Positions 1-30,120 of a stretch of 64,000 bases of DNA are shown piece after piece; the stretch's first letter is position 1; each line of letters opens with the position of its first letter. The notes beneath the pieces were generated by a model. That model was not told the DNA's origin and did no database searches. It saw only the letters and a list, made by a program, of their open reading frames with translations. A program made the position numbers and the translations under genes. Source of the DNA: a virus (lineage: Duplodnaviria > Caudoviricetes); the IMG/VR virus record IMGVR_UViG_3300028172_000069; one strand, given 5' to 3'.

Positions 1-3000
1 CGCAGGTAGTCGATGAACGAAGCTGTGGTCAACTGCTTGACGACCTTGTGCTTCGCAGTCTTCTGCCCTTTCAGCTTGTGGCTTTCGTCGATGATGACGT
101 AGTTGAACTTGAAGGCCTTGATGAACTCCAGGTTGGTGCCAACGTCGATCACGGCGTTACCGATAACCACCGACATCTTGTTGTTGCGCAGGAAGTTGAA
201 ACCTGCAACGCAGATGGTGTTCGGTGGCGCAGTCGCGATGATTTCCTGCAGGCGGTCAGCACCCCAACGGTTGAAGATCGCACCGTTGATCGGGATCATG
301 TTCCACGTGTCACCAGCGAACTGGCGCATGTCGTCACACCAGTTGAGGATCAGACCGTCTGGGCAGAGCACCAGTGGCTTGACCTTCTTGTTGATGGACT
401 GCAGGTCCTTGATGATACAGGCCATGTCGCCCAAACCAATCGAGGTCTTACCGCCACCAGGCGCAATGTCGAGCACAGCAAACTTCGGCGGCTCTTTCTT
501 ACGCAGGAAGCGGTGAGTGTCCAGCTGGTGTGGGAACACGGAGAACTTTTCGGTCGAGCCAGCGAAGTGAATGTCTTCCACACCGACGCTAGTGTCGCGC
601 TCAATCGACTTGATGCCTTCTTCGGCTTCTGCCTCGATGGCCTCGTAGTTCTGCGCGTACTTGCCGAAGACAATAGCAATCGGCTTGACCTTGTCGAGGA
701 TGGTGCCCGAGTTAGGACGTAGCGCAGTGCGCTTGACCATCTTCGGAGTTTGACCTTCCTCGGCAATGTTTTCTTCGGTCACCATCGACTTCTCACCAGA
801 GGTGAGTTGCTCAACGGTCAGCGAGTTGATGCCGTCCAGAATCTGCTTGAGGACGTTACCACCGATGAAGTTGAACAGGCGAGCGAAGTGATGCGCGGGG
901 CTACGATCTGGAACGAAGTAGTCTTCGTGATCCGCGATCTGTTCGTTCGTGGTGAAGTAGTCCATGTCGGCACCACCACTCTCACGCACGTCGTTGTATA
1001 CCCACGAACCAGACTTGCCACTACACGCGTCGGTGGTACGAGAAATCAGCTCTTGGAGAAGCTCGATATCCTTGTCCTGATTGCGGCCAGCGCCCTTGAT
1101 TTCACCCGCCTCGCTCAGCAGACCTTTGTAGATACGGTCTTGGCGACGTGGGGTTTCCTCGTCGAGCTTCTGAATGCCCAGGTCGTTGAACGCTCTGGTA
1201 ATCAGTTCCTGCAGGCCCGGCACTTCGTTCTTGTACGCGTGGAAGAAGTACGTCAGGAAAATGTCGTGGAACAGGCTATCCTTGATGAAACGGCCTGGTT
1301 CACCCGAGCTGCCGTAGTAGAAGCTCGGAGGGTTTTCCATACCCAGCGGATCGGCGTGGGTCATGAGAGCCAATGCGTCGGCGAACGACTTCTGCATCGG
1401 CGCTTCGCCTTCCTTGGCCATGTTGTAGCCGAGGTAGTCAGCGATGGTCAACGCATCAGGTTTCACTGCACCGATCTGCTGGCGGCAACGCACGATGCCA
1501 GGACGACCAGAAGCGTACACACGGAGACCGTAGTCCCAGTCGTAGCTCAGCAGGCTGTCTTCAAAGCCGATCAGCTTCTTCCAGTTCTCCTGCACTTCCT
1601 GATAGACGTTGTACGGGATACCGTAACGCGCCAACTTGTCGTACGGTTCGCTGAACAGGCTGGAGCTGATGCCGTACTGCGCAGCGATCTTGCCCACTTC
1701 GTTACCCAGGCGTTCGAACTCCTGGATGCCAGTAACCTTGGAGCGATCAGCGGCAGTCGGCAGGTAGGCCAGGGTACCATCAGGTGCAACGTACAGACCG
1801 TCTTCGTTCGCACGGGTCGACTCAACGGACATACCGCTGGCCTTACGAGCGTCGGTGACAGCAGCCATCTTCGACACTGGCAGGACGTAGCGCGGGATGT
1901 TGCGAATCTTCATCCGGCCGTCGGTCAGGGCGTTCTTGGCAGACGTGCCCTTCTTGCGCAGGTACTGGGAAGCCCAGATGCTGAACCAGTTGTCGAAGGT
2001 GGTGTAATTGAGCTGCTCCGACTTCTCGGTTTGCGTGATGAACGCGGCAGTCGGCTTGTCGAAGGTAAAGGTGATAGTCGAACCCACCTTACGGTTGAGC
2101 AGCGACGCCTCTTCGGTGACGTTGTCCTGCACACGCTTCTTGAGCAGGGTCTCCGAGTTGAGCAACTCTTCTGGCGGGTTGGTTGCCAGCAGGTCGCTGT
2201 ACTCTTTCGACAGTGCTTCACCAGCCATGCTCTCCGCATGCAACACCAGAGTCAGGCGGCAGAAGCGCTCGGCGAAGGTCTTGCCATCGCTACCGAAGGT
2301 GATGTTGTCGAAGAAGTTGACACCCAGATCAACACCCAGTTCCTTCTCAAGGATGGACTGGAGTTCGGTGAAGTCAAAGTACAGCGGCAGGTTGACGCGC
2401 TGCGGCTCGAACGATGCGTACTCTGCACTGGCGCCGAACAGGGTAGCCAAGATACCACGCGCGGCCTTGATGACAGCCAGCGAGGTGTTGGTGCTGTACG
2501 ACTGGAGCTTGTTCGAGTCGTAGCCCATCTGGGTACGGTTCGATTCCAGGTAGTCGCCATAGCCCAGGTCCGAGCACATCAGGATGGAGTCGTGCGTCGA
2601 GCGCAGCAGGTTGACGTCCACACCGCCAGCGTACGTGGTCGAAGGAGTCACCGAGTGCTTGTTGCCAGCCATCATCGCGCCAATGAGCGAGTACATCGAC
2701 GCGGTCAGTGGGCTGGAGCCGTCAGCTTCGGTCTGCAGGATTTCACGGAAGCGGATAGCGTCAGCCGCCATTTCCTGAATGCGTGCAGTCCACTGAGGCT
2801 TGTTGCTTTCCATGGCGAACAGCGTGCGGCCGTTCTCCAGCAGGCGACGCATGAACGTGAACAGGACGTTCAGGCTGTTGGTGACCTCGGAGAGTTCTTT
2901 GAACAACTCCAGGATCGACGCGCGGCTCTTCCGGAAGAAGAATGCGTTGAAAGCCGAGTACAGCTTCGGTTCGAGGCTGACTGGTTGCAGCGACTTGATA

Positions 3001-19025: not shown

Positions 19026-20051
19026 TTAGATGCTCTGGAGCGCCTTCAGGGTTTTCTCCATAGCCTTGGTAATGTCTTTAGGCATCGTCTTCCCAGTCAT
19101 GTGGAATGCGAATGCCTCTGCAAAGAACTCGTCCGGGCTCACCATGGAGTATTCGGACAGATCAGGACGCGACTCCACGATCGTTGTACGCTTCGGCCAC
19201 ATCGAGGCGAACTTCTCGCTGTCCTCAAGATAGAGGATTTCGAGGCTGCGGCCGTCGAGCTTGTGGTAGCGCTTGTAGTGGCTGAGCACTTCGCGGAACA
19301 CCAGAGAGTCTTGATCTTCAAGCTCTTTATAGAATTCCTTGAACGTGCCGCTGAACTCGATCAGTTCACCAAGCATCGACTCCAACCGATCTTTCAGGAT
19401 GCTGTTCAGCTCCAGACGCTTGTGGTAGAGCTTGATCCAGCGCGCCTTGTACGCACCAGGCACCATGCGGAACCAGACTGCGTGCGCGTACTCGTGGTAC
19501 AGGACATACTCGTTGTACGCACGGTCGGTGAACGTGTCTGGGTACAGGTCGATGCCGTCAGTGAACTCGCTCATGGAGCGCTTGATGTGGTAGCAGCCTG
19601 CGTACTTTCCACGCTTCGGGAACAGCTTGATGCTGCCAAGCGGGAAGATGTTCAGGTTGTTCTCCAGCATCGCATCGTAGGTACGACGCAGCGCAGACTT
19701 GAGCGCTTTCTTCTCCAGGTCTTCCAGCACACGGAAGAAGTGCATCGGTCCGTACTTGGAATCGACGCTGGTGATGTATGGGTTGATCTTCACGCCGAAC
19801 GCATTACCACCTGGCTTCGGGTTCAGACCGAGGTTGGCAACCAGTGTTTGGTCATCGTACTCAATGGTCTGGTGTTCTTCGTCAGCCAGAGTGCGGTCGA
19901 TCACTGCGCGATTGCGCTCAGGGTTGATCGCGAGGCACAGATGATGCTTGGTGCCAACACGCACGATGATGTAGCTGTCCTTCTGGATCGCCATCATCGC
20001 AGGAGACTTGGACTTCTTCTCCTTTTTCTTCTCTTTGTCTTTCTTGGCCAT
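19026..20051 (-). CDS. Putative zinc metallopeptidase (HExxH)
   Basis: VLYHEYAHAVW plus downstream SPDEFFAEAF (third-ligand Glu). Confidence 0.7.
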   Translation of the reverse strand: MAKKDKEKKKEKKSKSPAMMAIQKDSYIIVRVGTKHHLCLAINPERNRAVIDRTLADEEHQTIEYDDQTLVANLGLNPKPGGNAFGVKINPYITSVDSKYGPMHFFRVLEDLEKKALKSALRRTYDAMLENNLNIFPLGSIKLFPKRGKYAGCYHIKRSMSEFTDGIDLYPDTFTDRAYNEYVLYHEYAHAVWFRMVPGAYKARWIKLYHKRLELNSILKDRLESMLGELIEFSGTFKEFYKELEDQDSLVFREVLSHYKRYHKLDGRSLEILYLEDSEKFASMWPKRTTIVESRPDLSEYSMVSPDEFFAEAFAFHMTGKTMPKDITKAMEKTLKALQSI

Positions 20052-20060
20052 GGGAATTCC

Positions 20061-20663
20061 TTACGAGCTGATCCAGCCACGTGGGTTGTTGGCAGCGCGA
20101 ACGAGAATGTCCACACGCTCTTGCGGGGTTTGCCCGCGTGGATAGTAACCGCCACGTGGATCGTCACGGAAGTGCGCTTCACGGAACATGGCGATGCGGG
20201 CTTCGACAAACTCGTCGAGTGTCTTGATGCCGTACTGCGGCTCTGCAAGCGAGCGGCGGCTGTAACGCTCAACACTGCAATCGCTACTGTCCTGATCGTA
20301 CCACATCAGAAAGTAGCTGTTGTCGGTTTCGTACAGTACCAACCAGTCGTCGCCTTTGGCCTTGAAGTGGTGTTTCGCGGTTGCAGCATCTGCAAACGCT
20401 TGGTAGTTCTCGACAGTAGGTGCGATCCAGTTGGCATCGTTGTCTTCGTCATTGTCAACGCGCTCACCCTCTGGCTTTTCAAGACCGTAGCGCGCCAGCA
20501 GGAACGCGACGTGGTTCTTCCCGTAGTTTACCAGACCATCGAGAAACGAACTAGCAACGTAGTCGTAGCGGGTGTCGAAGGCGATACCTCCATCGCGCAT
20601 GATCTGCGCAGTTGGATAGTCGTATTCCTCCATTGGGAAATCTTTCAGCTTGTACTGAGACAT
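20061..20663 (-). CDS. Hypothetical protein
   Basis: 200-aa ORF, GAGG RBS. Confidence 0.7.
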   Translation of the reverse strand: MSQYKLKDFPMEEYDYPTAQIMRDGGIAFDTRYDYVASSFLDGLVNYGKNHVAFLLARYGLEKPEGERVDNDEDNDANWIAPTVENYQAFADAATAKHHFKAKGDDWLVLYETDNSYFLMWYDQDSSDCSVERYSRRSLAEPQYGIKTLDEFVEARIAMFREAHFRDDPRGGYYPRGQTPQERVDILVRAANNPRGWISS

Positions 20664-20665
20664 GG

Positions 20666-21301
20666 TCAGCCCTCGGAACGAGTCTTGCCAACGATGCCGT
20701 AGTAACCGCCGATCGCTGGGATGAAGATTTGATTGTCGAACTTCTTGTGGTGCTCAAGCGGATCGAGGCTGAACATCACTTCACCTTCCGACGTTGGAGC
20801 ACGCAGAGTACGCACGCCGTAGCGCTTGCAGTCGTCAGCCAAACGGATCACGATGAAACGGGGATCGACATGGGTCTGCTGGATTGCACGGCGAGCGATG
20901 TAGTCGTAGGCACCTTTGCCTAGGTCAACGAAGCGAGCGAACAGGTCGATCACATGCTTGTCTTCGCTGATGTGGTAGCCTTCTTTCGGGTCGAGGCCTT
21001 CGAACGCGAGGAAGGTGTACACGGCGGTCGCGCTTGGCGATGCCGAGTCGAAGTATTCTTCAACCAGCTTGGCCACACCTTCTGCGAACTCGATCTGGAG
21101 AGGCGTCAGTGCTGGACACTCAGCAGGACGCTCAAATTCTGGACGATCAACACCGCCGTCCATGATCTTGTCGTAGGCTGCGCGCAACTGTGCCTTGTTC
21201 GGATGATCGAACGTTGGGTACAACTCGGCGCAGGCTTGTTTGAAGTACAGCTCGGCCGTGTTCAGGTTGATCCGAGTGTACTTGGTCATCACGGTGCTCA
21301 T
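20666..21301 (-). CDS. Hypothetical protein
   Basis: ATGA overlap with the upstream amide-ligase gene. Confidence 0.7.
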   Translation of the reverse strand: MSTVMTKYTRINLNTAELYFKQACAELYPTFDHPNKAQLRAAYDKIMDGGVDRPEFERPAECPALTPLQIEFAEGVAKLVEEYFDSASPSATAVYTFLAFEGLDPKEGYHISEDKHVIDLFARFVDLGKGAYDYIARRAIQQTHVDPRFIVIRLADDCKRYGVRTLRAPTSEGEVMFSLDPLEHHKKFDNQIFIPAIGGYYGIVGKTRSEG

Positions 21302-22155
21302 TCGTCGTCCCACCCTGTATCTGGTTCGCTTACTGCTGGACCGTGAGTACGCACCAGCTCGTTGTAGATGCCGACTACAGACTTGTAGCCTTTGGTGTTC
21401 AGTGGGCTTTCGAGCAGATGCTCCTCGAAGCCAGCCTTGATGCCAGTGTCACCCAACTGAAACGGTTGGTGAACGTACACACGCACGCGCTCGAAATACT
21501 CCTCGAATGCCATGCGGCTGACTGCCTTCTGAATAGGCTTGTTCAGGTCAGCAGGGGTCGCACCCTGGAAGATTTTCAGAATCTTCGGTGTGAAGAAGAT
21601 CGGGCAGTACGCAAGGTCACCGCCGTTCTCTGCACACCACTTCTCGATCAAGCCCTTCTGGAAGGCTTTGTTGGACGAGAATGCGAGCGCACGGAATTCG
21701 TCTTCGCGCCCAGCGTAGTGCTGGCAGGCTTTGCGACTCAGGCAGTACAGGCTGTCTGCACCGTGACCAGTGAAGAACACGTCTTCCTTGATCTTGGGCA
21801 GCAGATGGTACATTGGCCAGAAGCACTCGAAGTCGGTCTTCGATCGGCAGCCAAACTCGGCGAGCTTCACGACGTCCTTCATCAAACGCTTCTGACCAGT
21901 GGGCAATGTGACTTTGGTAAACGGCAGTCCGAACTCTTTCGCAGTCAGTTGGGCGATGCGCACGTCGCGGCTCTCGACACCTTCGAGGTGGAAGCTGTAC
22001 ACATGCGGCTTCAACCCAGCCTCAAGGCAAGCGAACAGGGCGCAGTGACTGTCCACACCGCTGCTCATTGGCACGGCTACCTTCTTCACGCCGTACGACG
22101 CTGCCCGTTCAACAAGGGCTTTACGGAGCTTTCTGGCTCGCGTCTTCTGATCCAT
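21298..22155 (-). CDS. Asparagine-synthetase-C/PP-loop ATP-dependent amide ligase-like protein (CmoY-like)
   Basis: VAVPMSSGVDS PP-loop and FFTGHGADSL (AsnB TGEGADEL-like); no glutaminase domain; neighbours cmoA-like and C5-MTase-like genes. Confidence 0.75.
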   Translation of the reverse strand: MDQKTRARKLRKALVERAASYGVKKVAVPMSSGVDSHCALFACLEAGLKPHVYSFHLEGVESRDVRIAQLTAKEFGLPFTKVTLPTGQKRLMKDVVKLAEFGCRSKTDFECFWPMYHLLPKIKEDVFFTGHGADSLYCLSRKACQHYAGREDEFRALAFSSNKAFQKGLIEKWCAENGGDLAYCPIFFTPKILKIFQGATPADLNKPIQKAVSRMAFEEYFERVRVYVHQPFQLGDTGIKAGFEEHLLESPLNTKGYKSVVGIYNELVRTHGPAVSEPDTGWDDE

Positions 22156-22163
22156 GATCGCTC

Positions 22164-22616
22164 CTAGCGTTTCTTCTTGCCTTTGAATTTTACCCAGTGA
22201 TTACCCTGGAGTCCGCCTTCAAGTTTGTGCAGGCGAACAATGTCACCGTTGGACTTGATGCCCACGATGTAGTAACCCAGGTACTTGTCCTTCGTCACTT
22301 TAAGGAAGGCGGCTGGCGACGTGCGCAAAGGCATGCCGCTGATATCCTTCTTCTTGGTGATCGTGTACGCCACGTAATCGCTGTTGGTCCAATCGTCCAG
22401 CAACTTCATCATCACGTCTGGCATCACGAACTTCATATCGTTGCCGTTGACGGCATAGAAGAACGTGTTGGCATCGCCCTTACCAACGGTGTACATGATG
22501 CCTGCTTGGGTTGCAGACACTTGCCACTGATGAAGGCGACGCTCATTCGGGCTCAGGCCCTCTTCCATTTTCCACAGCGTTTTCACACGCTTGCGGAGCA
22601 ATTGGAGTTCGCGCAT
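22164..22616 (-). CDS. Hypothetical protein inside the modification cluster
   Basis: 150-aa ORF 3 nt after the cmoA-like stop. Confidence 0.7.
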   Translation of the reverse strand: MRELQLLRKRVKTLWKMEEGLSPNERRLHQWQVSATQAGIMYTVGKGDANTFFYAVNGNDMKFVMPDVMMKLLDDWTNSDYVAYTITKKKDISGMPLRTSPAAFLKVTKDKYLGYYIVGIKSNGDIVRLHKLEGGLQGNHWVKFKGKKKR

Positions 22617-22619
22617 TGC

Positions 22620-23405
22620 TTAGTCCTTGATGGCGATGTAGCCCACGAAGTTGAGGTTGCGGAAGAACGTCTCGACGCTACGGAAGCCAGCGGTGCGCAG
22701 CATTTCGATATTGTTCTCATGGGTCACTGGGACCTGAACACCTTCGAGGGCTGCACGCTTGCGCTCAATGTCTTCCCAGCTATAGCCGTTGTCGTGCTTG
22801 TACTCATGGTAGGCATCGACCAGCAGTTCTTGCATCACTGCCGTGTTGCCCAGCACCTTCTCTACCATGAAGAAGGCACCGCCAGATTCCAGACCATCGT
22901 ACACGCCCTTTAGGATGGACGGTCGGAAATTGATCGGCACGAAGATCATGGTAAGGATCGACAGCACGAGGTTAGTCGGCAGCGTCTGCACTTTGTGGAA
23001 TTCCACACTGCCACTCATGTGCGCACTCGGCCAGCGAATGGCGTCGGCAATCTCTTTGGCCTTCTTGCGCAGGTCGTAGCTGCACGGGTGTACGTTGAAC
23101 TGGTCGGCGAAGCGCCCACGCATTTCTTCAAGCATCGGGTCCGAGATTTCGCTCAGATAGAACTGGGCTTCTGGGAACGCACCAATGAACTTGGCACTCG
23201 CTTCACCGCGGCTTGCACCGAGGTCAATGACGTTGCACGGTGTCTTGACGAAGTTCTTGCCCAGTCGCCACACCAATTCACGCATCGAACCATAGCCGGG
23301 GATGCTGCGCTCCAGCATGTTGTCAAACTTCTTGGCGACGTCCTCGTTGAACTCCCACTTCTGGCCGGGTACGTGATCGTCGCGCAGGGTTTCGATTGGT
23401 TGCAT
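22620..23405 (-). CDS. cmoA: Carboxy-SAM synthase CmoA-like
   Basis: WEFNEDVAKKFDNMLERSIPGY, DLGAS, MVEK, ERKRAALEGV, AGF..VETFFRNLNF.GYIAIK parallel E. coli CmoA motifs; GGAG RBS before ATG 23405. Confidence 0.88.
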   Translation of the reverse strand: MQPIETLRDDHVPGQKWEFNEDVAKKFDNMLERSIPGYGSMRELVWRLGKNFVKTPCNVIDLGASRGEASAKFIGAFPEAQFYLSEISDPMLEEMRGRFADQFNVHPCSYDLRKKAKEIADAIRWPSAHMSGSVEFHKVQTLPTNLVLSILTMIFVPINFRPSILKGVYDGLESGGAFFMVEKVLGNTAVMQELLVDAYHEYKHDNGYSWEDIERKRAALEGVQVPVTHENNIEMLRTAGFRSVETFFRNLNFVGYIAIKD

Positions 23406-23448
23406 GTCCGTAACTCCATGTTTGATGCCCATGTGGGCTTACTGGTCA

Positions 23449-23455
23449 TTTACAG
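23449..23455 (-). promoter_or_regulatory. CTGTAAA putative phage promoter motif (representative copy)
   Basis: Directly after a terminator and 44 nt upstream of cmoA; recurrent motif, see findings. Confidence 0.5.
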
Positions 23456-23467
23456 TTTCAAGGCCAC

Positions 23468-23493
23468 AAAAAGGGAGCGCGATGGCTCCCTTT
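23468..23493 (-). terminator. Rho-independent terminator
   Basis: AAAGGGAGC-CATCGC-GCTCCCTTTTT. Confidence 0.75.
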
Positions 23494-23502
23494 GTGCGAG
23501 GC

Positions 23503-24516
23503 TTACAGCTTTTCGAGGATATTGCGGCGAAGCTCGCGGCAAACGTGGTACATCATGAGCGGTGGTACCGAGCGGCCGATGCGCTCAAACTGCTGCTTGT
23601 AGGTACCAGTGAAGATGAAGTCTTCGGGGAAGGTGAAGATGGTCTTCAACTCGTCGATGGTGTACTTACGGCGCTCACCGCTCAGCGTCTCGATGAATCC
23701 ACCTGAGGAGAATCCAGCAGTCTCGCTGTTGGTGCCATCCGAAGCCACGATTGTAGGTGACGGGATCGACGCAGGCACGTACTTCAGGTCACCCTTGTGC
23801 TTCGACTTCAGGTACGCCACGTGAGGTAGAACGTCATTCACGTTGATGGCATACTTGTGCGGCGTTGGGAATACAGGGTCGAAACCTTTCTTCACCAGAT
23901 CGTCACGCACGCCGACGAAGATCACACGCTCACGGGCTTGCGCCACACCAAGGTATGCAGCGTTGAGCACTTGCGCACGCACGCTGTAACCGATCGCCTT
24001 CAAGTCACGGAGAATTTCGACGAAGTAGCCTTTCGCGTCACCCTCGACCATGCCTTTGACATTCTCGCAAACAAATACCTTCGGCATGAAGGCTTCCAGC
24101 TTGCGCATTTCCTCGTAGAAGAGGTCGTCTGTGCGCTGGTAGACGTTCTCGCTGTACAGCTTCTCCTTGCCCCAGTCATCACTGCCAGTACCAGACGTGG
24201 AGAATGACTTGCACGGTGGGCTACCTTCCGAGAAGTCGAGCTGGCCACGTTTCAGGCCAAGCTCTTTGCGAATGGCTGCCCAGTCAACCTTGCGAATGTC
24301 TTCGCCGATGACCATGGTGCCTTTGTGGTTCTTCTGGTAGGTTTCGATGGCCGGCTTGATGAACTCGGTAGCCGCGAGCACTTGGATGCCCGCCATCTTC
24401 ACGCCAGTAGACGAGCCGCCACAGCCACTGAAAGAACTGATGCCTTTGAAGTGCTTGGGCAGCGCGTTGATCTTCTTCATCGAAGGGATCTTGGGAATGC
24501 GTTTCTCATTGGCCAT
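23503..24516 (-). CDS. DNA cytosine-C5 methyltransferase-fold enzyme, probably a carboxymethyltransferase (CmoX-like)
   Basis: Motifs I FSGCGG, IV SPPCKSFS, VI ENV, VIII QARERVIFVG; motif X is GRSVPP rather than GN(S/A)V. Confidence 0.88.
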   Translation of the reverse strand: MANEKRIPKIPSMKKINALPKHFKGISSFSGCGGSSTGVKMAGIQVLAATEFIKPAIETYQKNHKGTMVIGEDIRKVDWAAIRKELGLKRGQLDFSEGSPPCKSFSTSGTGSDDWGKEKLYSENVYQRTDDLFYEEMRKLEAFMPKVFVCENVKGMVEGDAKGYFVEILRDLKAIGYSVRAQVLNAAYLGVAQARERVIFVGVRDDLVKKGFDPVFPTPHKYAINVNDVLPHVAYLKSKHKGDLKYVPASIPSPTIVASDGTNSETAGFSSGGFIETLSGERRKYTIDELKTIFTFPEDFIFTGTYKQQFERIGRSVPPLMMYHVCRELRRNILEKL

Positions 24517-24526
24517 GGCTGCGTCC

Positions 24527-25333
24527 TTACTTCTTTTTCTTCGCTGGCATTTTCAGCTCTGTTTTCTTCGGAGCCGCGAGCTTGGATTTCTTGGGCTTGT
24601 CACCCTTGTCCTTACTCTTGACCTTCTCTTTGTCTTTCGACTTTTCCTTCTTGCCGTCTTTCTCTTTCAGCTTGAGCTTCGGAGCTTTCGGCTCAGCCTT
24701 GGCCGCAGGCTGCGACTTGGCACTGGTGTTGAACTGGAATTTGCACTTCGGGCAGCAATGCTCGAACTCGAAGCTGTCCTCGCCGAACTCTTGGAACGAC
24801 TCCTTGCCTTCGCCATCGTTGTCGATTTCGCGACCTTTGGAGTCGAGCGTTGGCATCTTTGGCATCAAGCCACGCAGGCTCAGTGGGTCGATACCCAGAA
24901 CGTTCACGTCGAACGACTTGCCGGCGTCGAGCTTCTCCAGCATAACGCCCAGCTTGGTACGGTCGAAGTCGCCACCGTGCGCGTTCGCTGCGATGTTGGC
25001 CGCCATCTCGGATTTCTTGTCGCTCCAGTCCACGATGCGTAGTGGGATACGGATTTCGCCGCTCGCAGTCTTCGCAACGATGTGACCTTCTGCAACGGTA
25101 CCGAAGGCGTCCTTCACAGGCTTTGTGACGATCTTGGTCTTGACGTCCTTACCGCGCAGACGCTTCAAGCGCTGGTGACCGGAAATCAGGTTCTGGGTCT
25201 TCTTGTTGAAGACGACGCCGGACAGGTCACCGTAGGTAGTCATGGACAGGTGCAGGTTGTCCAGTCGCTTTTCACTGATGACACGCGGGTTATACTTGGC
25301 CTCTTTGAGGTCCTTGATGGTCAATTCTGCCAT
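24527..25333 (-). CDS. ParB/Srx N-terminal-domain protein with CPKC zinc finger and basic tail
   Basis: YNPR...SMTTYG..VVFN...LISGHQRL; HCCPKC. Confidence 0.85.
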   Translation of the reverse strand: MAELTIKDLKEAKYNPRVISEKRLDNLHLSMTTYGDLSGVVFNKKTQNLISGHQRLKRLRGKDVKTKIVTKPVKDAFGTVAEGHIVAKTASGEIRIPLRIVDWSDKKSEMAANIAANAHGGDFDRTKLGVMLEKLDAGKSFDVNVLGIDPLSLRGLMPKMPTLDSKGREIDNDGEGKESFQEFGEDSFEFEHCCPKCKFQFNTSAKSQPAAKAEPKAPKLKLKEKDGKKEKSKDKEKVKSKDKGDKPKKSKLAAPKKTELKMPAKKKK

Positions 25334-25348
25334 TTGCTTAATAGCCTG

Positions 25349-25582
25349 TTAGTTCTTGGGAATTGGGTAGCAGTCGGTCGCGACACCGTCCGTGCCAGTT
25401 GCGATGAAACACTCGATGCCGGGCCGCGGCGAGTAAACTTGCTTTTGCACGGAAGTCGCTGCCATCCAACGACTCCATGCAGTGAACCCGTAGATCATCA
25501 ACATGATGAATACTACCACGCCCGCAACAGCCAGAAGGATGAGGGCGAACGTTTTACGGTCGTTTTGTGCTGAATGTGCCAT
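25349..25582 (-). CDS. Small membrane protein
   Basis: One long hydrophobic helix; GGAG RBS. Confidence 0.7.
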   Translation of the reverse strand: MAHSAQNDRKTFALILLAVAGVVVFIMLMIYGFTAWSRWMAATSVQKQVYSPRPGIECFIATGTDGVATDCYPIPKN

Positions 25583-25616
25583 AGCATTCTCCAGTGGTTT
25601 GTCTGGAGTTTACAGT

Positions 25617-26120
25617 TTAGATCACCACTCCGAGTTCCTCACGCATGATGCGCAGGCACTCATCCTTCTGCATGAACATCCAGCGCTTCGGTAACGGGAT
25701 GCGCTTACCAGAGCCCGTCATGAGCAGCACGCAGAACTTGAAGCCGCGCTCTTGGCATGCCTTGGCCTTAGCCTTGTTCATGCTCCAGCCGCGCTTCTTG
25801 TTGTTGATCAGGCCCATCGTTGCCTTCGACTTCACTTCCACGATGATGTTGTGGTTGCGAATGAAGATATCAGGCATGTAGGTACGCCAGCGCTTGCCGT
25901 ACTTGTAGCGAATGTTCAGGGCGTTACCCATTTCGCACTCGGTACGAATGTCGGCCGGGTCGAATCCGCCTTTCTCGACAAGGTACTCCAGCGCTTGTCG
26001 CTCGTAGCCTTGAACCAGCAGTTGCCGACCGTGGAACTCATAGTGGTACTGCTTGTACTTCTCGGAACGCTTCTGTCTGCGTTTCTTCATCGGTGCGTTG
26101 TTTCCAAACAGACCTTGCAT
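25617..26120 (-). CDS. PD-(D/E)xK endonuclease
   Basis: VQGYE..AL...TYMPDIFI..NIIVEVKS; GGAGG RBS. Confidence 0.8.
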   Translation of the reverse strand: MQGLFGNNAPMKKRRQKRSEKYKQYHYEFHGRQLLVQGYERQALEYLVEKGGFDPADIRTECEMGNALNIRYKYGKRWRTYMPDIFIRNHNIIVEVKSKATMGLINNKKRGWSMNKAKAKACQERGFKFCVLLMTGSGKRIPLPKRWMFMQKDECLRIMREELGVVI

Positions 26121-26178
26121 ACGGTAACCTCCCAGTCAATGCTGGAAAAATTACCAAGGGAAATGAAAACGGGAACCA

Positions 26179-26472
26179 CTAGGGCTCCCGTATTGCCATT
26201 GCGCGTATGGCACTGCGCAGTCTGACTGGATCATTGCTATGTACAGGGTTCTCGAAGAACTCGCGCAGTGGTTCCTTGTACGGTCCACGTGCGAAGAACA
26301 CCAGCACGGTATCTGTCACTTGGATGCGCACGTTGTCGTGCGGAGCCTTGCGCTTGAACGTAGTTGCTGACTGGTCGAACTCACCAATCACTGTACCCAT
26401 ATCGTCAGCCAGCGTGGTCAGTTTCGAGAACACCTCCGCTGCTCTCTCGGAGGAAGGAAACAAGTTCGTCAT
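26179..26472 (-). CDS. Hypothetical protein
   Basis: 97-aa ORF, AAGGA RBS. Confidence 0.6.
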   Translation of the reverse strand: MTNLFPSSERAAEVFSKLTTLADDMGTVIGEFDQSATTFKRKAPHDNVRIQVTDTVLVFFARGPYKEPLREFFENPVHSNDPVRLRSAIRAMAIREP

Positions 26473-26803
26473 ACGTGCGGTCCTTGTTGAATGGGTCGAA
26501 TATCAGGACGTCCGGATGTTGTCGCAGGACGTAGTCACAGAAGTCCAGATAGCCTTGCGCGTCCACGTCATGCGTGGATGCTGCAACGTGGAGAACATCG
26601 TGCCTGCGTATTTGGGAGCAGACAACTTCGGGGAATCTTGGCAGGGTAGCGTATACCTGAATGTCGAACTCAGGATAGGTGCGCTCGCTACTCGCCGCAG
26701 CATGGGTGATAAACAGGTCTAGACCAGGGACGTTCTCTTTCCAGAGTTCCTCCAGCAGGCGAGTGCGCGTTGCGCTGTCGTCCCACAGAATGTTCAGCTT
26801 CAT
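26405..26803 (-). CDS. Hypothetical protein
   Basis: Start MKLNILW after a terminator; AAGGA RBS. Confidence 0.6.
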   Translation of the reverse strand: MKLNILWDDSATRTRLLEELWKENVPGLDLFITHAAASSERTYPEFDIQVYATLPRFPEVVCSQIRRHDVLHVAASTHDVDAQGYLDFCDYVLRQHPDVLIFDPFNKDRTYDELVSFLRESSGGVLETDHAG

Positions 26804-28722: not shown

Positions 28723-28729
28723 GAACAGT

Positions 28730-28803
28730 TGGGACGTCTGGGACTTGAACCCAGGACCACGCCGATTAACATTCCGGTGCTCTACCGACTGAGCTAACGT
28801 CCC
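28730..28803 (-). tRNA. Atypical tRNA-Asn(GTT) with tRNA-Lys-like body, no encoded CCA
   Basis: GGGACGT/ACGTCCC acceptor, D and T arms intact; anticodon arm CCGGA-ATGTTAA-TCGG is imperfect. Confidence 0.75.
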
Positions 28804-28804
28804 A

Positions 28805-29113
28805 TTAGTCTTTGAGTGCAACTCCGACACTCACTGCCAGACAGAACTTGCCATCGGGATTCGTGAAGAACGATCCGCCATAGGTGTAAGCCTGTCTGGT
28901 TTTGTTCTTGATCTTGCGCAAGTGATTCTTCATCAACTTGCGGATCGAGGAAAGAAGCAAGCGACGGTCGCTGGTGTCGTTGACCGCCAGCACTTCGTTG
29001 ACCGTGACATACTTGTCGCCGAGCTTCGGAACTTGACCCTGGTCCAAATGGACAATGTCCAATGAGCACGAGGTAAACAGCAGTTTGATTTCTTCCGCAG
29101 TCATCTGACTCAT
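28805..29113 (-). CDS. Hypothetical protein between tRNAs
   Basis: 102-aa ORF. Confidence 0.6.
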   Translation of the reverse strand: MSQMTAEEIKLLFTSCSLDIVHLDQGQVPKLGDKYVTVNEVLAVNDTSDRRLLLSSIRKLMKNHLRKIKNKTRQAYTYGGSFFTNPDGKFCLAVSVGVALKD

Positions 29114-29220
29114 GGATCAGTTTCCAAAGCAGCGTGTAGGCAGGGCCAGTAACCGGTAATACCGTCACTGCTCTGATGTACTAGCGAATAGCGTTCTATC
29201 AGAACTCTGGCCCACAAAAA

Positions 29221-29296
29221 TGGTAGGACGTCCGAGACTCGAACTCGGGACCCTCGGATTAAAAGTCCGGTGCTCTACCAACTGAGCTAACGTCCT
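29221..29296 (-). tRNA. tRNA-Lys(TTT)
   Basis: 76-nt cloverleaf, loop CTTTTAA, CCA encoded. Confidence 0.95.
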
Positions 29297-29478
29297 AGAA
29301 AACAATCCCGCTTGCACAGACGAGTGGGCTTCTGTACTTGTGAACAGAGTCAGGGCGGGTACCTGTGGTCATTGCCAATACAGCGCCGTCCACGAGTTTC
29401 AGGCCGCATCAACAATCTAACTCTGGTTCGCTACCTCGGGCACGGCCAGCTTTGCAGCGCCCACTGAGGTTTTGAATA

Positions 29479-29554
29479 TGGCTCCCGCTCCTGGACTCGA
29501 ACCAGGGACGCCACGGTTAACAGCCGTGTGCTCTACCGACTGAGCTAAGCGGGA
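29479..29554 (-). tRNA. tRNA-Asn(GTT)
   Basis: 76-nt canonical cloverleaf, CACGG-CTGTTAA-CCGTG, G73, CCA. Confidence 0.97.
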
Positions 29555-29728
29555 AGGGTAAAGTGTGCGGTTTCGTGCGCATCGCCAAGGATAAACGTGC
29601 AAATCGTATCTTGGCTAACAGGCACAGCTCGTTCAAATTGCGAAGCAGCCTCCGCGTACGGTCAGCGCTCTTTTACGTTTCCCAGTAATCCACCACAAGC
29701 TTGCTGGGTGTGCTCGCTTTGCAACGAA

Positions 29729-29944
29729 TCAGGCATTGCCGGTATACGCGACAAACACCTGCATGTTTTCTTTCACCTCGACAGGACTGCCTCGAGGTGT
29801 GAGGACACCACCGCCGTGACCTTTAACTGACCAGGTCACTGTGTACACCACGCTCGGGTCTCGACCGTCGAGTTTGACGGCTTCTTCGTAGCTGATGGTG
29901 CGGCAGACAAACTCATGCGGCTTTGCATTCACAAAAATTTGCAT
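29729..29944 (-). CDS. Stand-alone ubiquitin-like (multiubiquitin-type beta-grasp) protein
   Basis: IFVN.KPHE....ISYEE.VKL.....YTVTW....GGGVLTP.GS.VEVKENM.VFV matches the bacterial multi-Ubl pattern as recalled. Confidence 0.75.
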   Translation of the reverse strand: MQIFVNAKPHEFVCRTISYEEAVKLDGRDPSVVYTVTWSVKGHGGGVLTPRGSPVEVKENMQVFVAYTGNA

Positions 29945-29961
29945 GGCGGTGCTCTCGGATG

Positions 29962-30038
29962 TGGCGACTCCAACGGGACTCGAACCCGTGACCTCTGGCG
30001 TGACAGGCCAGCATTCTAACCGACTGAACTATGGAGCC
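29962..30038 (-). tRNA. tRNA-Asp(GTC) copy 2
   Basis: 77-nt cloverleaf, CTGTCAC loop, CCA. Confidence 0.97.
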
Positions 30039-30043
30039 GAAAG

Positions 30044-30120
30044 TGGCGACCCGGACGGGACTCGAACCCGTGACCTCTGGCGTGACAGGCCAGCATTCTA
30101 ACCGACTGAACTACCGGGTC
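30044..30120 (-). tRNA. tRNA-Asp(GTC) copy 1
   Basis: 77-nt cloverleaf, CTGTCAC loop, CCA. Confidence 0.97.

Follow-up and report, generated by a model that had tools for sequence, protein, structure and literature searches.

Phages can hypermodify their DNA through carboxy-S-adenosylmethionine (Cx-SAM), as Yang et al. described for the CmoA/CmoX/CmoY pathway of Synechococcus phage S-B43 (Nat Commun 2025, December 2025; PMC12783734). The S-B43 CmoA (SpCmoA) forms Cx-SAM from S-adenosylmethionine (SAM) and prephenate. SpCmoX uses only Cx-SAM and produces 5-carboxymethylcytosine (5cxmC) at GC sites; its Arg350 sits where M.HhaI has Asn304 and makes contact with the carboxymethyl group, and the R350N variant is inactive (PMC12783734). 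SpCmoY is an Asn synthetase homologue without a glutaminase domain, and carries out the ATP-dependent ligation of glycine to the carboxylate. In S-B43 virion DNA about 75% of the GC sites are modified, and the glycine amide was found while bare 5cxmC was not (PMC12783734). In Escherichia coli, SpCmoX modifies plasmid and genomic DNA indiscriminately. Candidates from UniProtKB, IMG/VR v4 and MGnify numbered 5,615 for CmoX (SPPC motif plus Arg), 4,257 for CmoA, 2,251 for the ligase and 1,660 for ParBc neighbours (PMC12783734). Here we analyze an operon of this kind in the window, a 64,000-nucleotide (nt) stretch of DNA from a tailed phage (IMG/VR record IMGVR_UViG_3300028172_000069).

Results

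The window encodes CmoX, CmoA and CmoY in one operon

The window comes from an uncultivated soil phage resembling Pseudomonas phage PaBG, with 76% DNA identity to PaBG across the cassette and synteny in the genes around it. Near-identical proteins are found on contigs of 156-202 kb, in agreement with the original prediction made for this DNA, which took it to be from a jumbo phage. Five closely spaced open reading frames (ORFs) lie on the minus strand at 21298-25333, in the order ParB-like gene, cmoX, cmoA, p150 and cmoY, with intergenic gaps of 10, 97 (to 23405), 3 and 8 nt. The second and third of them, cmoX and cmoA, were the two genes on which the original prediction of cytosine carboxymethylation was based. 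We consider it highly probable that the operon is an S-B43-type Cx-SAM system for cytosine modification, ending in an amide of 5cxmC in the phage DNA. What the sequences show is homology, residue conservation and gene linkage; the chemistry, the amine, the DNA target and what p150 and the ParB-like protein do are inferred.

The 337-amino-acid (aa) protein encoded by cmoX (23503-24516, minus strand) matches PF00145 (DNA_methylase) over residues 23-329 with an expectation value (E) of 1.5e-49, and also TIGR00675 (dcm). Among all PDB sequences its top match is 8YF3, the crystal structure of SpCmoX (E 1e-57), followed by M.HaeIII (6e-23). It is 41% (MAFFT) or 36% (tblastn) identical to SpCmoX and 89% identical to PaBG_00177. 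Motifs I (FSGCGGSS), IV (SPPC, residues 99-102), VI (ENV, 151-153) and VIII (QARER, 193-197) are all present and motif X reads G314-R315-S-V, just as had been reported, and the Arg315 codon maps exactly to the predicted 23572-23574 on the minus strand (24516-3*314 = 23574). HMMER pairs IGRSVPPLMM of the window with VGRMVPPLMM of SpCmoX and with IGNAVP of M.HaeIII, placing Arg315 opposite SpCmoX Arg350, as MAFFT does too, and opposite the Asn of M.HaeIII.

The other functional residues of CmoX are retained as well. F29, E51, F52 and D73, corresponding to the adenine and ribose contacts F25, E47, F48 and D69 of SpCmoX, are invariant in the comparison with SpCmoX and PaBG. S99-P-P-C102, which includes the nucleophile, aligns with SpCmoX S95-C98, and the cytosine contacts E151 and R195/R197 also fall in invariant columns. 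We aligned seven CmoX sequences, from the window, PaBG, S-B43 and four metagenomic homologues (the last at 47-57% identity). Arg315 is invariant in all seven, at identities of 41-89%, and is therefore not a chance substitution; F29, E51, F52, D73, E151 and R195/R197 are likewise unchanged across this larger set. The 337-aa enzyme is a true CmoX homologue for which carboxymethyl transfer is predicted.

Downstream of cmoX, cmoA (22620-23405, minus strand) encodes a predicted carboxy-SAM synthase of 261 aa. An alternative in-frame ATG at 23432 would lengthen it to 270 aa, but the start at 23405, the one originally proposed, is better because it has a GGAG 8 nt upstream and agrees with a database gene call of 261 aa. 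CmoA models are by far the top matches for this ORF (TIGR00740, E 1e-37; PRK15451, E 1.1e-26), with BioC next at E 1e-3, and CmoA structures are matched in the PDB (1IM8, E 2.7e-27; 4GEK, E 3.6e-25). Its identity to the biochemically validated SpCmoA is 30-32%; the active SpCmoA is comparably distant from the E. coli enzyme (EcCmoA), at 27.9% (PMC12783734). The neighbour of cmoX had been called a CmoA homologue from its KR..LE.V segment, and this is borne out: the segment, KRAALEGV, aligns with KRSMLENV of E. coli, where R199 forms a salt bridge with the carboxymethyl carboxylate of the cofactor (PMC3663124). The equivalent of R199 in the window is R226, in 270-aa numbering, counted through the alignment to 4GEK, in which chain numbering is native plus 14 (residue 213 = R199). 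Window residues Y47, D70, G72, S74, A78 and F164 are the same as EcCmoA Y39, D62, G64, S66, A70 and F137, with E95 replacing D89. D120-L121 probably corresponds to EcCmoA D117-I118, a pair of columns invariant in the MAFFT alignments, though HMMER aligns the region otherwise.

The MAFFT alignment also places a Glu of SpCmoA opposite window R226 and E. coli R199, and an Arg four residues on, where the window has Glu (IERKRAALEGV in the window, IMDKEKELRDM in SpCmoA). Judged from the aligned segments, the two charges seem to have traded places across one turn of the helix.

The last gene of the operon, cmoY (21298-22155, minus strand), codes for a 285-aa Asn-synthetase-like protein matching PF00733 (Asn_synthase, E 8.4e-07, profile positions 18-153) and phrog_26038 (E 3.6e-117). 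Its PP-loop is intact (SSGVDS, S31 to S36), and a Pfam scan found no glutaminase domain in the 285 residues. A match to the S-B43 cmoY gene covers 84% of the length at 33% identity (E 2e-26), and identity to PaBG_00180 is 82%. The protein is CmoY, a predicted ATP-dependent amide ligase. Because CmoY is present and intact, the final base is more likely an amide of 5cxmC than 5cxmC itself. The amine that the window CmoY would couple is not readable from its sequence, and it may not be the glycine used by SpCmoY.

The original prediction, that cytosine is carboxymethylated in this phage, is thus supported, with a correction to the end product. The match to 8YF3, the retained Cx-SAM and catalytic residues, the adjacent CmoA and the lack of CmoB in PaBG all speak for it. 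Bare 5cxmC is probably an intermediate, CmoY being encoded two genes downstream of cmoA.

In the pathway that we propose, CmoA would convert SAM and host prephenate to carboxy-SAM. CmoX would flip out the target cytosine, Cys102 would attack C6, and the carboxymethyl group of Cx-SAM would be moved to C5; Arg315, in the position that Asn takes in ordinary methyltransferases, would hold the carboxylate of the cofactor. The predicted product of this step is 5cxmC in the phage DNA. CmoY would then adenylate the 5cxmC carboxylate and couple an amine to it, as with glycine in S-B43, and the resulting amide in virion DNA may shield it against host nucleases.

Other functions for the operon

It is possible that bare 5cxmC is the end product in virion DNA and that the Asn-synthetase-like protein acts elsewhere or is inactive. 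One metagenomic cassette (L012:3524-6474) encodes ParB, CmoX, CmoA and p150 without CmoY, while being otherwise syntenic with the CmoY-bearing L008, so that 5cxmC is evidently a possible final state, and it may be the end state in that phage. In the window, however, cmoY belongs to the operon itself, only 8 nt separating it from p150; its product has an intact PP-loop and is 82% conserved in PaBG, and S-B43 virion DNA yielded only the amide and no 5-carboxymethyldeoxycytidine (5cxmdC) (PMC12783734). For the window phage we regard bare 5cxmC as an unlikely end product. A different role for CmoA would be in forming 5-carboxymethoxyuridine at position 34 (cmo5U34) of host or phage tRNAs, the adjacent C5 enzyme then being an ordinary SAM-dependent 5-methylcytosine methyltransferase. 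The phage has a tRNA cluster, databases label CmoA as a tRNA methyltransferase, and PaBG encodes tRNA-Ala(UGC), which carries cmo5U in Gram-negatives. Yet no CmoB-family match was found in the complete PaBG genome (258 kb), where cmoX is also the sole PF00145 gene. For these genome-wide checks, PaBG (complete record) and a near-identical IMG/VR contig of 114 kb stood in for the full genome of the window phage. With no CmoB and a single PF00145 gene in PaBG, no phage enzyme other than CmoX is evident that would consume Cx-SAM. The invariant motif X Arg also matches the residue by which SpCmoX accepts only Cx-SAM, and CmoA, CmoX and CmoY are linked in many phages. A tRNA function in place of DNA carboxymethylation is consequently very improbable. 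The substrate could also be host DNA, or RNA, with the enzymes serving takeover or toxicity rather than self-protection, in keeping with the indiscriminate activity of SpCmoX on plasmid and genomic DNA in E. coli (PMC12783734). We give this hardly any credence, as the virion DNA of S-B43 is itself modified at about three in four GC sites (PMC12783734), and the PF00145 fold with a ParB-like partner points to double-stranded DNA.

Several observations do weigh against a complete S-B43-type pathway ending in an amide. The CmoA match is below the equivalog cut-off of TIGR00740 (130.1 versus 193.3 bits) and the cut-off of PRK15451 (93.9 versus 285 bits). Two SAM contacts of EcCmoA are not kept (N90 is I96 and N132 is I159 in the window), and about 30 residues are inserted after D120-L121. 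CmoY is just 33% identical to SpCmoY, and the L012 cassette without CmoY means that members of the family can do without amidation. Between motifs VIII and IX, where CmoX has its target-recognition region, the sequence is well conserved inside the PaBG-like clade, but relative to SpCmoX it has a 29-residue deletion and a 12-residue insertion. As the region differs, the GC specificity of SpCmoX is not transferable to the window enzyme, and the PDB comparison contained no enzyme of known specificity close to it from which the target motif could be inferred. Finally, the data for this phage and for PaBG are Illumina sequences only, and the chemistry is a prediction. The locus agrees with the S-B43 CmoA/CmoX/CmoY system in the sequence-level comparisons that we ran, save for the strict CmoA equivalog score, two SAM contacts of CmoA and the Pfam threshold for ParB.

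A ParB-like partner and a conserved 150-residue protein

The first gene of the cassette (24527-25333, minus strand) stops 10 nt before cmoX and encodes a 268-aa ParB-like protein with a putative N-terminal domain of the ParB type, a CxxC segment in its C-terminal part and a tail rich in Lys. It matches phrog_620, "ParB-like partition protein" (E 5.7e-33), and had no Pfam match at E<=0.01, ParBc (PF02195) included. It is 71% identical to PaBG_00176, annotated as a ParB-like nuclease. A ParB-like homologue is found directly upstream of CmoX in five other loci (L005, L006, L007, L008 and L012). The presence of this gene in the operon fits the ParBc association reported by Yang et al. (PMC12783734).

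The fourth gene, p150 (22164-22616, minus strand), starts 3 nt past the cmoA stop, ends 8 nt before cmoY and encodes 150 aa (phrog_23597, E 2.9e-47). Among GenBank phages p150 occurs in 53 records, comprising PaBG and jumbo phages of Erwinia, Dickeya and Yersinia, and these records also contain close CmoA and CmoY homologues. An exhaustive HMMER search gave 61 representative relatives, nearly all of about 150 aa. CmoA and CmoY are encoded within 8 kb of the p150 homologue in 28 of 30 IMG/VR loci, 12 of the 28 having ParB and CmoX in addition. In six metagenomic contexts (p150 at 25-40% identity) p150 directly follows CmoA or CmoY in cassettes of the ParB-CmoX-...-CmoA type. The S-B43 locus lacks p150, and Yang et al. 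do not mention it (PMC12783734). The tight linkage of p150 to CmoA and CmoY appears to be new.

The AlphaFold2 model of p150 is confident, with a predicted local distance difference test (pLDDT) score of 95.7. There was no match to p150 in Pfam, in PADLOC or, by profile, in the PDB, and a search by language-model features in the protein Atlas returned nothing informative. Foldseek comparison of the model with the PDB, AFDB clusters and BFVD found the PaBG orthologue only, and structural matches in the ESM Atlas had template modelling (TM) scores <0.4. We do not claim a PUR/Whirly-like fold, the best VIA-align Z of 6.2 (Pur-alpha, residues 1-79) being below the background of 7-8; nor do we claim a new fold for the model, no library having given a convincing relative. 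A similarity to long immunoglobulin (Ig)-repeat proteins (P0023, P0029) looks compositional. K46, T51, P66 and W141 are invariant in p150 and E18, W31, G45 and N50 nearly so, including a GKGxxNT loop, which suggests a putative site for binding a ligand or nucleic acid.

Complex prediction for CmoA and p150 gave a score of 0.00, which is evidence for neither outcome. As L012 retains p150 in a cassette without CmoY, p150 is not dependent on the ligase. The idea that p150 might be a non-homologous chorismate mutase supplying prephenate is weakened by a locus that has p150 together with a fusion of a chorismate mutase domain (CM_2) to CmoA (L014, below). We tentatively suggest, at somewhat less than even odds, that p150 takes a functional part, so far undescribed, in the Cx-SAM-dependent hypermodification of DNA by Pseudomonas, Erwinia, Dickeya and Yersinia jumbo phages. 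Candidate roles are a factor binding Cx-SAM, a factor binding 5cxmC, or a further processing enzyme. If p150 is functional in this way, virions of PaBG-like phages would have an adduct other than the 5cxmC-glycine amide known from S-B43.

Related cassettes vary in their enzymes

Metagenomic phage contigs contain cassettes of the five-gene type too, with protein identities of 45-58%. In one metagenomic locus (L014:6001-7050, protein P0146) the CmoA homologue has a chorismate mutase domain of type II (PF01817, E 1.6e-16) at its N terminus; the fusion is encoded between CmoX and CmoY, followed by a p150 homologue. Its domain composition suggests that some phages boost the prephenate supply for Cx-SAM synthesis. 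Two other cassettes code for an extra enzyme beside CmoY. In L006 (3429-4457) this is a P-loop protein of the DUF1611 family, and in L007 (4142-5269) a pyridoxal phosphate (PLP)-dependent enzyme of the PALP family. The amine donor may be produced or changed by them, hinting at other final adducts.

Yersinia phage fHe-Yen9-02 (OR620964) has a 692-aa CmoX-like gene (L005:15004-17082) next to a ParB-like gene. Residues 3-102 and 102-334 of the window CmoX match on either side of an insert of about 350 residues at the PPC motif, and this two-piece pattern recurs in about 48 records of Erwinia and Dickeya jumbo phages. Sub-threshold matches of the insert to Hint/intein models (Intein_splicing, E 5e-06; Hint_2, E 8e-05) suggest that it is probably an intein in a predicted carboxymethyltransferase.

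Surroundings of the operon and source of the sequence

The 97-nt gap between cmoX and cmoA contains a terminator-like hairpin at 23468-23490 on the minus strand (GGGAGC, a 6-nt loop and GCTCCC, then TTTTT). It was read from the letters themselves, and a consensus scan did not list it; it may act as a partial terminator or serve to stabilise the mRNA. Past cmoY, two ORFs of 215 and 200 aa (20061-21313, minus strand) had no match in Pfam, PHROG or PADLOC. Only the C-terminal 88 residues of the 215-aa product match PaBG_00181 (42%), and the 200-aa ORF has no counterpart in PaBG. Just upstream of the ParB-like gene, at 25617-26120 (minus strand), is encoded a 167-aa protein with a TnsA/Vsr-like endonuclease fold (DUF7487, E 1.8e-15; Tn7_TnsA-like_N, E 1.4e-05), kept at the same place in PaBG (76%) and in L006 (67%); it may be a homing nuclease or an enzyme attacking unmodified DNA. 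Five tRNA genes (two Asn, one Lys, two Asp) are found downstream, at 28728-30120 (minus strand), and PaBG likewise has a tRNA cluster.

IMG/VR contigs are 98% identical to this stretch of the window, and all assemblies that contain it are Illumina soil metagenomes or metatranscriptomes. Three runs labelled metatranscriptomic (X10, X16 and X19), searched with window 20000-26500, gave phage contigs of 28 kb to 234 kb at a depth of about 200-3000. The phage is very abundant in these soil samples. Since the RNA libraries give phage contigs of 174-234 kb at uniform depth, they do not demonstrate transcription.

Discussion

Both the pathway and its broad distribution among phages have been in print since December 2025, and the window cassette is one more example of it rather than a new discovery. 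As its relatives are in the databases mined in that study (PMC12783734), the window phage very probably features among the candidates listed there. The main text of the study does not mention PaBG, Pseudomonas or jumbo phages. Our literature search found no paper describing DNA modification in PaBG, and neither CmoA nor the cassette is mentioned in the survey of jumbo phages by Iyer et al. 2021 (PMC7824862). The present analysis adds the Pseudomonas jumbo phages of the PaBG group to the predicted carriers of the carboxymethylcytosine pathway. PaBG can be cultivated on P. aeruginosa PAO1, making the predicted base, its target motif and any effect on restriction or CRISPR directly testable. Together, p150, the chorismate mutase-CmoA fusion, the PLP-dependent enzyme and the DUF1611 protein suggest that phages elaborate the carboxymethyl handle in more ways than the single glycine amide shown so far.

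A close relative of the operon is PaBG_00176 to PaBG_00180 (KF147891), a set of five orthologous genes that keeps the gene order and shows 53-89% identity at the protein level. They are annotated in PaBG as a ParB-like nuclease, a DNA cytosine methylase, a tRNA (cmo5U34)-methyltransferase, a hypothetical protein and an asparagine synthase. The two cassettes differ by about a quarter of their nucleotides, and the window has extra or diverged ORFs after cmoY. Like S-B43, the window phage encodes the three enzyme families together, with SPPC and the motif X Arg in CmoX and a PP-loop ligase without a glutaminase domain. CmoB is missing too, as judged from PaBG, and the cassette includes a ParB-like gene, a type of neighbour reported for many contigs (PMC12783734). 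Unlike S-B43, where the order is A-Y-X, the genes are arranged as ParB-X-A-p150-Y; p150 is additional, CmoX has a shorter and dissimilar target-recognition region, and the proteins are only 30-41% identical. The lineages also differ, S-B43 being a cyanomyovirus and the window phage a jumbo phage of the Pseudomonas type.

A second point of comparison is the bacterial CmoA/CmoB pathway for cmo5U34 in tRNA, represented by CmoA of E. coli (4GEK, 4IWN) and YecO of Haemophilus influenzae (1IM8). The window protein shares with these the CmoA fold, the equivalent of Arg199 and most cofactor residues. It differs in scoring below the equivalog level, in lacking a CmoB partner, as judged from the PaBG genome, and in that its predicted consumer is a DNA C5 transferase. 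The use of Cx-SAM by such a transferase has a laboratory parallel in M.MpeI N374K, the work of Wang and Kohli (ref. 21 in PMC12783734, where the parallel is drawn). As presented in that paper, Asn is changed to a basic residue at the same position of motif X, Cx-SAM is used and 5cxmC is formed. The background on which the original prediction drew, namely that CmoA makes Cx-SAM, that M.MpeI with Asn changed to Lys accepts it, and that a cyanophage has a CmoA/CmoX/CmoY pathway with an Arg, is all contained there. M.MpeI N374K is a laboratory mutant with a Lys and a preference for CpG, whereas the window enzyme is natural, has an Arg, and is encoded with its own CmoA and a downstream ligase.

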